DNA of 64,000 bases from Terriglobia bacterium (lineage in GTDB: Bacteria > Acidobacteriota > Terriglobia > 20CM-2-55-15): contig CAXWPJ010000002.1 in assembly GCA_963664115.2 (NCBI GenBank), forward strand, positions 800,001 to 864,000, read 5' to 3'. The number at the start of each line of letters is the position of its first letter. Within the stretch, counting starts at the first letter, position 1. A program made the position numbers and the translations under genes. The notes beneath the pieces are model-generated. The model ran no database searches and had not been told where the DNA came from. It was given only the letters and a program-made list of their open reading frames with translations. Shown here in pieces: positions 29,984 through 30,394 of this stretch.

Positions 29984-30394
29984 ATGTATAGCATCTGCGT
30001 TCGTGACCACTTCATGATTGCGCACAGTTTCGACGGCGATGTGTTCGGTCCCGCTCAAAGTCTTCACGGCGCGACGTATGTCGTCGACGTTGAATTGCGC
30101 AGACCGAAACTCGACGAAAACGGCGTCGTCGTCGACATCGGTCTGGCAGGCCAGGCGCTCGATTCCGTGCTGTCAAAGCTCAACTACCGTAACCTCGATG
30201 AGGAGCCCGCCTTGACCGGCCGAAACACGACGACAGAGTTTCTCGCACGCATCGTTTTCGATCGCCTGGCGGAACGGATTCGGGGTGGTGAACTCGGCGA
30301 CGGTGCGCGTGGACTGATTTCGATGCGCGTAACCCTGCACGAATCACACATCGCATGGGCGGCATACGAGAACGAACTGACGGACCAGGACTAG
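29984..30394 (+). CDS. 6-pyruvoyl/6-carboxy-tetrahydropterin synthase (COG0720) homolog, atypical FGPAQ type
   Basis: HFMIAHS-x5[40 protein letters not shown]. Confidence 0.88.

Follow-up and report, generated by a model that had tools for sequence, protein, structure and literature searches.

What can a member of the PTPS/QueD family do once its catalytic Cys and one of its zinc ligands are gone? The question is raised by a 136-residue protein encoded at positions 29984–30394 (+) of the 64,000-nucleotide stretch of Terriglobia DNA that we analyzed (the window). We address it by asking how general the altered active site is, to which subfamily the protein belongs, and what its gene neighborhood suggests about the substrate.

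The altered active site is a property of the family

The open reading frame is preceded by AGAGGA, which resembles a ribosome-binding site, and its product is a member of PF01242 (COG0720/PTPS family; 86.9 bits against a cut-off of 22.4). It scores 43.9 against the QueD model TIGR03367, below a cut-off (89.25) that is strict, being passed in only 6 of the 50 genomes surveyed for the subfamily discussed below (PTPS-IV; the genomes correspond to 50 of 54 loci whose flanks are complete). Alignment places Ala24 at the position of the catalytic Cys (FGPAQ over FGKCN of animal PTPS), Gln25 at that of the PTPS-III Glu, and Ala30 at that of the second His of HGH, and the inter-subunit Asp-His pair reads N67/Y68, a loss that the original prediction had not included. 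H14, H28, E85, and E120 are retained, giving the motif FGPAQxLHGA; both glutamates presumably have a role in the active site. In place of the CxxxHGH of QueD/PTPS-I we find AQSLHGA, in place of the ExxHGH of PTPS-III we find QxxHGA, and the CxxxxxHGH of PTPS-II is likewise absent. The single Cys of the protein, C5, is variable, occurring in 35 of 81 close homologues. Roles for the Cys and three His residues of QueD are described in passages of PMC9894224.

A24, H28, G29, and A30 are invariant in all 81 close homologues, which rules out a sequencing error, a pseudogene, or chance as the origin of the substitutions; Q25 is found in 77. E85 and E120 are also invariant in this set. Among distant representatives, for which some rows are frameshifted fragments, A24 is kept in 145/153, A30 in 137/154, and E85 in 134/148, while H14 (142/150), H28 (147/154), and E120 (71/74) are each conserved at about 95%. 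We considered Tyr68 as a new catalytic residue and ruled it out because the position is Tyr in 45, Phe in 28, and Leu in 7 of the 81 sequences. The original prediction had stated that the protein has no Cys or Glu nucleophile, that HGH has become HGA, and that it is neither a canonical QueD nor a PTPS-III enzyme. The motifs, the alignment, and the TIGR03367 score bear this out, the substitutions extend across the family, and PTPS-II is excluded as well.

The prediction had also attached meaning to extra His residues in DHFMIAH and LHESH, and here the wider family does not agree. H9 and H122 are invariant among the 81 close sequences and H119 is present in 60, but in distant representatives H9 is found in 109/141, H119 in 27/74, and H122 in 43/73, and H9 is shared with the ordinary QueD of this genome and, of 14 further paralogues that could be parsed, with 3. 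The structural model puts H9 and H14 on one strand, five residues apart, so that, with ordinary strand geometry, the two would be too distant to serve one site. A replacement metal site built from the extra His residues is therefore rejected at the level of the family. Of the three zinc-site His residues of PTPS enzymes the protein keeps two. Because H14, H28, and E120 are held while the extra His residues are variable and H9 is shared with QueD, a site formed by two His and Glu120, or no metal at all, appears more likely from the sequences than a rebuilt three-His site. For the question of metal binding, haloarchaeal plasmid loci (L104–L106 and L110–L113) offer a natural counterpart: they encode PTPS proteins reading E-x3-HSH, with a full three-His site, Glu at the Cys position, and sometimes GCH III alongside.

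Assignment to the PTPS-IV subfamily

The closest known structure is that of Streptomyces coelicolor SCO6650 (PDB 3D7J, released 2008), which matches the protein by sequence with E 5.6e-55 and 65–66% identity. It shares DHxMIAH, FGPAQxLHGA, NYRNLD, TTE, and LHESH, with no difference in active-site motifs. The AlphaFold model of the protein (pLDDT 93) supports a unimodular T-fold and superimposes on 3D7J with a TM score of 0.94 and an rmsd of 0.7 Å. Structure comparison gave Z 23.3 over 132 residues for 3D7J, against Z 14.6 for QueD (4NTK; rmsd 2.1 Å over 117 residues) and Z of about 14–15.5 for other PTPS enzymes. The 2008 structure paper on SCO6650 reportedly describes missing zinc, a missing triad, and no PTPS activity.

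The FGPAQ signature lies at residues 21–25. Passages of PMC5445326 give FGPAQ as the signature of PTPS-IV, a cluster of 561 sequences with PF00925 (mislabeled there as FolE2) and PF01872 as neighbors, and this published neighborhood is present in the window as a single fusion gene at 25321–26850. A COG0720 phylogeny, the check named in the original prediction, places 25 FGPAQ rows on one side of a branch with support 100/96, apart from QueD-type paralogues (45 rows, rooted at the midpoint; of 24 paralogue loci, 12 were unparsed and left out, and row L117 was mis-cut). We conclude that the protein is almost certainly a member of PTPS-IV (SCO6650-type). The replacement of Cys by Ala24 and of HGH by HGA is normal for this subfamily, which already has a name; the observation was right but not new. 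The subfamily is large: species-level genomes contain at least 485 loci that were confirmed, and there are at least 8000 scored candidates and 735 representatives at E 1e-10 or better.

Relative to E. coli QueD/PTPS-I (4NTK), the protein has the T-fold, the first two zinc-binding His residues, and both glutamates in common, whereas the Cys of CxxxHGH is missing, the second His of HGH is Ala, and the Asp-His pair is Asn-Tyr. Next to 3D7J, animal PTPS-II enzymes (2G64, 3I2B, 1B66) match the sequence best (profile E 2e-9 to 4e-6), yet the protein has other residues in place of their Cys, third His, and Asp-His pair. Folate aldolase-type PTPS-III proteins (Plasmodium 1Y13; archaeal PF1278 type) belong to COG0720, cleave the side chain of pterins without the Cys, and so offer a model for the chemistry proposed below, although they read ExxHGH rather than QxxHGA, and FolB is present in this genome.

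Seven proteins (P0128, P0130, P0132, P0137, P0152, P0175, and P0188) consist of two or three tandem PTPS-IV repeats; AH and FGxAxxLHG are retained in the first repeat and the third, and Arg stands in for the first His in the middle repeat. Such a protein could be a single-chain trimer. A reading of P0137 as a fusion of these repeats with the cluster's methyltransferase was not supported.

A conserved gene neighborhood

PTPS-IV stands in a compact cluster. Upstream of it is a BchC-like medium-chain dehydrogenase (28706–29689, +; TIGR01202 E 7e-12, under the cut-off), listed as an open reading frame from a TTG at 28652, for which we adopted the ATG at 28706 as the start; it has Ser44, family-wide, at what we take to be the usual place of a zinc-binding Cys. 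Downstream, a GT4 glycosyltransferase (30394–31530, +; PF00534) begins with a GTG that shares one base with the stop codon of PTPS-IV, and a class I SAM methyltransferase-like protein (31527–32414, +) overlaps the GT4 stop in turn. The last had no Pfam match in a profile search; PF13649 is found in 23–64% of members of its atlas neighbors. Divergent from this four-gene core is a CDP-alcohol phosphatidyltransferase (27773–28657, –; PF01066; the coordinates are open reading frame limits, and the true start may be later). Farther out lie the fusion of GTP cyclohydrolase II and a fungal/archaeal-type (Rib7-like) RibD_C reductase (25321–26850, –; PF00925), which is a third, extra PF00925 copy in the genome, a FkbM-family methyltransferase (24439–25194, +; PF05050, TIGR01444), and a membrane protein with a weak sulfatase-like domain (22755–24428, +; PF00884 E 0.0027, under the cut-off). 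The cluster is directly bordered by the opgH and opgG genes of periplasmic glucan synthesis (19250–22691); 4 of the 80 loci, as well as a Methylosinus plasmid locus (L108), have opgH close to PTPS-IV. A histidine phosphatase (27150–27725, +; PF00300), present in 3 of 80 loci, is a local addition. Compared with the SCO6650 locus, the window thus has RibA fused to a Rib7-like reductase, the added phosphatase, and adjacent opgG/opgH, and has no creatininase match among the window open reading frames scanned; one PF02633 gene lies about 98 kb off.

The dehydrogenase and PTPS-IV genes are separated here by 294 bp, through a 271-bp element at 29686–29956, compared with at most 55 bp in 66 of 78 loci. 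The element is MITE-like: it has 31-bp terminal inverted repeats that are 97% complementary, its left arm overlaps the dehydrogenase stop, and the genome holds five further near-full-length copies (82–91% identity). One copy occurs in L001, at another place. A scan for promoters and terminators gave matches at chance level.

To compare neighborhoods we counted genes in the best 80 of at least 485 PTPS-IV loci, 54 of the 80 having full flanks (counts for these 54 in parentheses). GT4 is found in 80 (54), the dehydrogenase in 78 (53), the methyltransferase-like protein in 73 (52), RibD_C in 67 (50), the CDP-alcohol transferase in 53 (38), the sulfatase-like protein in 38 (31), and RibA and FkbM in 22 (16) each. 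The tightest partners of PTPS-IV are therefore GT4, the dehydrogenase, and the methyltransferase, and not RibA. Creatininase occurs in 17 of the 80 loci, 11 of which also have RibA (shadow open reading frames removed); an LPG-synthase-type membrane protein occurs in 9 and an acyltransferase in 8. The core gene order is kept across phyla and in haloarchaea, and annotated plasmid loci of Streptomyces, Methylosinus, and Rhizobium have the same order. In seven haloarchaeal plasmid loci, examined out of nine matches, the dehydrogenase is upstream and GT4 is in the locus in every case, and the PTPS protein reads E-x3-HSH and falls outside the FGPAQ clade in the tree. GCH III (PF05165), which has no similarity to RibA, directly precedes the dehydrogenase in three of the seven, all of them Haloarcula. 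Literature searches, in which subscription journals lay mostly outside coverage, found no report of the cluster's product, and the supplement of PMC5041015 contains no PTPS-IV terms.

Possible sources of the substrate

The original prediction argued that the only cyclohydrolase nearby is type II and that the protein would act on a RibA-derived pyrimidine. The fact is correct, in that the nearest cyclohydrolase is the fusion protein, whose RibA domain keeps the three Cys, the Tyr, and the Arg, as do 22 of 22 locus RibA copies. The argument from it is weak. FolE is encoded elsewhere in this genome and in 46 of the 50 PTPS-IV genomes, so dihydroneopterin triphosphate is available, and RibA itself is found in only 22 of the 80 loci.

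Other evidence comes from the reductase. The fused domain most closely resembles archaeal and fungal DARP reductases (6P8C, 2AZN, 9L1H), and Ser occupies the position of Thr35 in yeast Rib7 and of Lys152 in bacterial RibD. According to passages of PMC3631187, this position selects between amino and deaminated substrates, with Lys selecting the deaminated one. Lys is absent from all 44 alignable cluster reductases (23 of the 67 were unaligned at the position), whereas the genome's housekeeping RibD carries it. A Lys-less reductase would agree with a T-fold pocket recognizing a 2-amino-4-oxo ring. Together with the GCH III found in the same slot in haloarchaea, this favors the kind of substrate that had been predicted, and ring-opened GTP is our best guess for its source.

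Precedents exist for such a supply. Passages of PMC4161248 describe Chlamydia RibA and TrpF making dihydroneopterin monophosphate from DARP; like the route proposed here, that bypass obtains a pterin monophosphate from the RibA product, but it uses a TIM-barrel isomerase, feeds folate, and is described there without a T-fold protein, GT4, or methyltransferase. A passage of PMC5041015 suggests that archaeal COG0720 members may use the monophosphate.

A strong GCH II or PRK07198-type enzyme was not found in 11 of the 50 PTPS-IV genomes (G004, G011, G022, G032, and G037, loci L099–L103; and G009, G014, G018, G019, G025, and G041). Five of the 11 read without the zinc cysteines, five were unaligned, and one had no match. 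RibD is present in 10 of the 11, and therefore some DARP source probably exists in those genomes. In the genome of the window, the housekeeping RibBA of the riboflavin operon (G000:C12:223787-224932) has Arg at the conserved RibA Tyr (by alignment at 35% identity), and a stand-alone RibA on contig C1 may do its work instead.

A proposed reaction and its alternatives

We propose that PTPS-IV, having lost the Cys/Asp/His triad and one zinc-binding His, is a cysteine-independent enzyme acting on a pterin or aminopyrimidine monophosphate derived from ring-opened GTP, a prediction to which we assign a probability of roughly 45%. The broader statement that it acts on some DARP-derived intermediate is one we regard as rather probable; that it specifically performs an aldol cleavage is doubtful. 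In the proposed route, DARP would be supplied by the cluster GCH II, or alternatively by GCH III or through a FAPy route involving creatininase, and the Lys-less reductase would reduce it with retention of the 2-amino group. The BchC-like dehydrogenase would then oxidize a ribityl hydroxyl, allowing ring closure to dihydroneopterin monophosphate, and PTPS-IV, holding the ring through Glu85, would cut the side chain in a retro-aldol type of reaction. GT4 and the methyltransferase would decorate the product. Taken together, the identity to 3D7J, the FGPAQ signature, E85 and E120, the conserved core order, the intact locus RibA copies, the Lys-less reductases, GCH III, creatininase, the separate QueD, FolE, FolB, and QueC of this genome, and the precedents from Chlamydia and archaea speak for such a route. 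Against it are the lack of RibA in most loci (it occurs in 22 of 80, and in 16 of the 54 with full flanks), the 11 of 50 genomes in which no strong GCH II or PRK07198-type enzyme was found, the presence of FolE in 46 of 50 genomes, the absence from the FGPAQ form of the Glu and third His of PTPS-III aldolases, and a GT4 that shows no particular closeness to 5ZE7, a pterin glucosyltransferase (E 2e-5, rank 21–22 of 56). In addition, the GCH III link may not be transferable to the FGPAQ clade, because the haloarchaeal proteins fall outside it.

The same substrate could instead meet different chemistry. PTPS-IV might be an Amadori isomerase/cyclase that performs what is the latter half of the FolE reaction, turning DARP into dihydroneopterin monophosphate, with RibD_C serving as a pterin reductase. 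FolE is itself a T-fold enzyme, the retained H14, H28, and E120 could carry out acid-base chemistry, and PMC4161248 includes the precedent for a DARP-to-pterin conversion. The RibD_C matches also include Rv2671. This protein we take to be a dihydrofolate reductase; the reductase in the window, however, is closest to true DARP reductases, and we consider a cyclase quite unlikely. We give similarly little weight to a non-catalytic protein that binds an unstable reduced pyrimidine or pterin and shields it for neighboring enzymes. Such a carrier would account for the loss of the whole triad and one metal ligand with the ring-anchoring residues kept, and SCO6650 is said to have neither zinc nor PTPS activity, but against it stand the strong conservation of H14 (142/150), H28 (147/154), and E120 (71/74) and the complete three-His site that is found in the haloarchaeal counterparts at this place in the cluster.

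Annotation pipelines name PTPS-IV-type proteins queuosine enzymes, and one could suppose that they take the dihydroneopterin triphosphate made by housekeeping FolE (46 of 50 genomes) and can replace QueD or FolB. The FGPAQ protein is the sole PF01242 match in 24 of the 50 genomes, 13 of which have QueC, and in five genomes (G009, G012, G013, G014, and G018; loci L148 and L152–L155) with a QueE-like gene beside queC, and with Tgt, three queries found no QueD besides PTPS-IV, which leaves a moonlighting role open. That a QueD-slot protein can lack the Cys is seen in queE-queD(-queC) operons (L125, L129–L132, L157, and L166) whose QueD-slot genes read S-R-R-x-HGH, with Ser for the catalytic Cys (S-x3-HGH). 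This genome (97% complete), however, encodes QueD with CxxxHGH, FolE, FolB, QueC, F420 genes, and two other RibA-family genes, all elsewhere, so that the PTPS-IV gene fills no gap, and profile search found no queC, queE, or queF among 13 open reading frames scanned around it. The 81 genomes of Variovorax, the genus of G016, were also compared, with PTPS proteins typed by match span and not by motif reading: 20 have PTPS-IV only, 12 both types, 45 the QueD type only, and 4 neither. The distribution is complementary (Fisher p 2e-7, uncorrected for kinship), but substitution for QueD in this genus was rejected since joint absence of queE and queD explains it: QueE occurs in exactly the 57 genomes with a QueD-type gene and in 0 of the 20 with PTPS-IV only. 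QueC, moreover, persists in 3 of the 4 genomes with no PF01242 gene. The evidence thus mostly argues against the queuosine label, and we judge a stand-in for QueD or FolB very unlikely. Still less probable is a role in coenzyme F420 synthesis, which a passage of PMC5041015 asserts, citing unpublished data. F420 starts from a ribityl-pyrimidine, and the genome has cofG, cofH, cofE, and a cofC-like gene, but these are on another contig; CofG/FbiC is found in only 9 of the 50 PTPS-IV genomes, many of them incomplete MAGs, and the F420 pathway has no step for GT4, the methyltransferase, or the CDP-alcohol transferase.

Returning to the cysteine-independent enzyme on ring-opened GTP, we also considered a bolder extension, which we hold to be improbable as a whole. 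Here, the PTPS-IV module would be a FolE-independent route from GTP to pterins common to bacteria and haloarchaea, in which PTPS-IV is a new cysteine-free, possibly metal-free T-fold catalyst. The pterin or ribityl-pyrimidine would be glycosylated, methylated, and carried to the envelope on a phospholipid made by the CDP-alcohol transferase, in this organism possibly to the opgG/opgH periplasmic glucans. Attachment to a lipid or the envelope is proposed because membrane enzymes co-occur with PTPS-IV.

Implications for the family

The odd active site is a known trait of a large subfamily, so the finding itself is ordinary. PTPS-IV is a known orphan subfamily, and the question it poses is which reaction the protein catalyzes and what the module makes. 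The present locus lends itself to testing, since a single protein next to the four-gene core combines GTP cyclohydrolase II with an amino-selective reductase. Should the product of the module be a glycoside or lipid head group derived from GTP, it would represent a new class of metabolite in hundreds of species.
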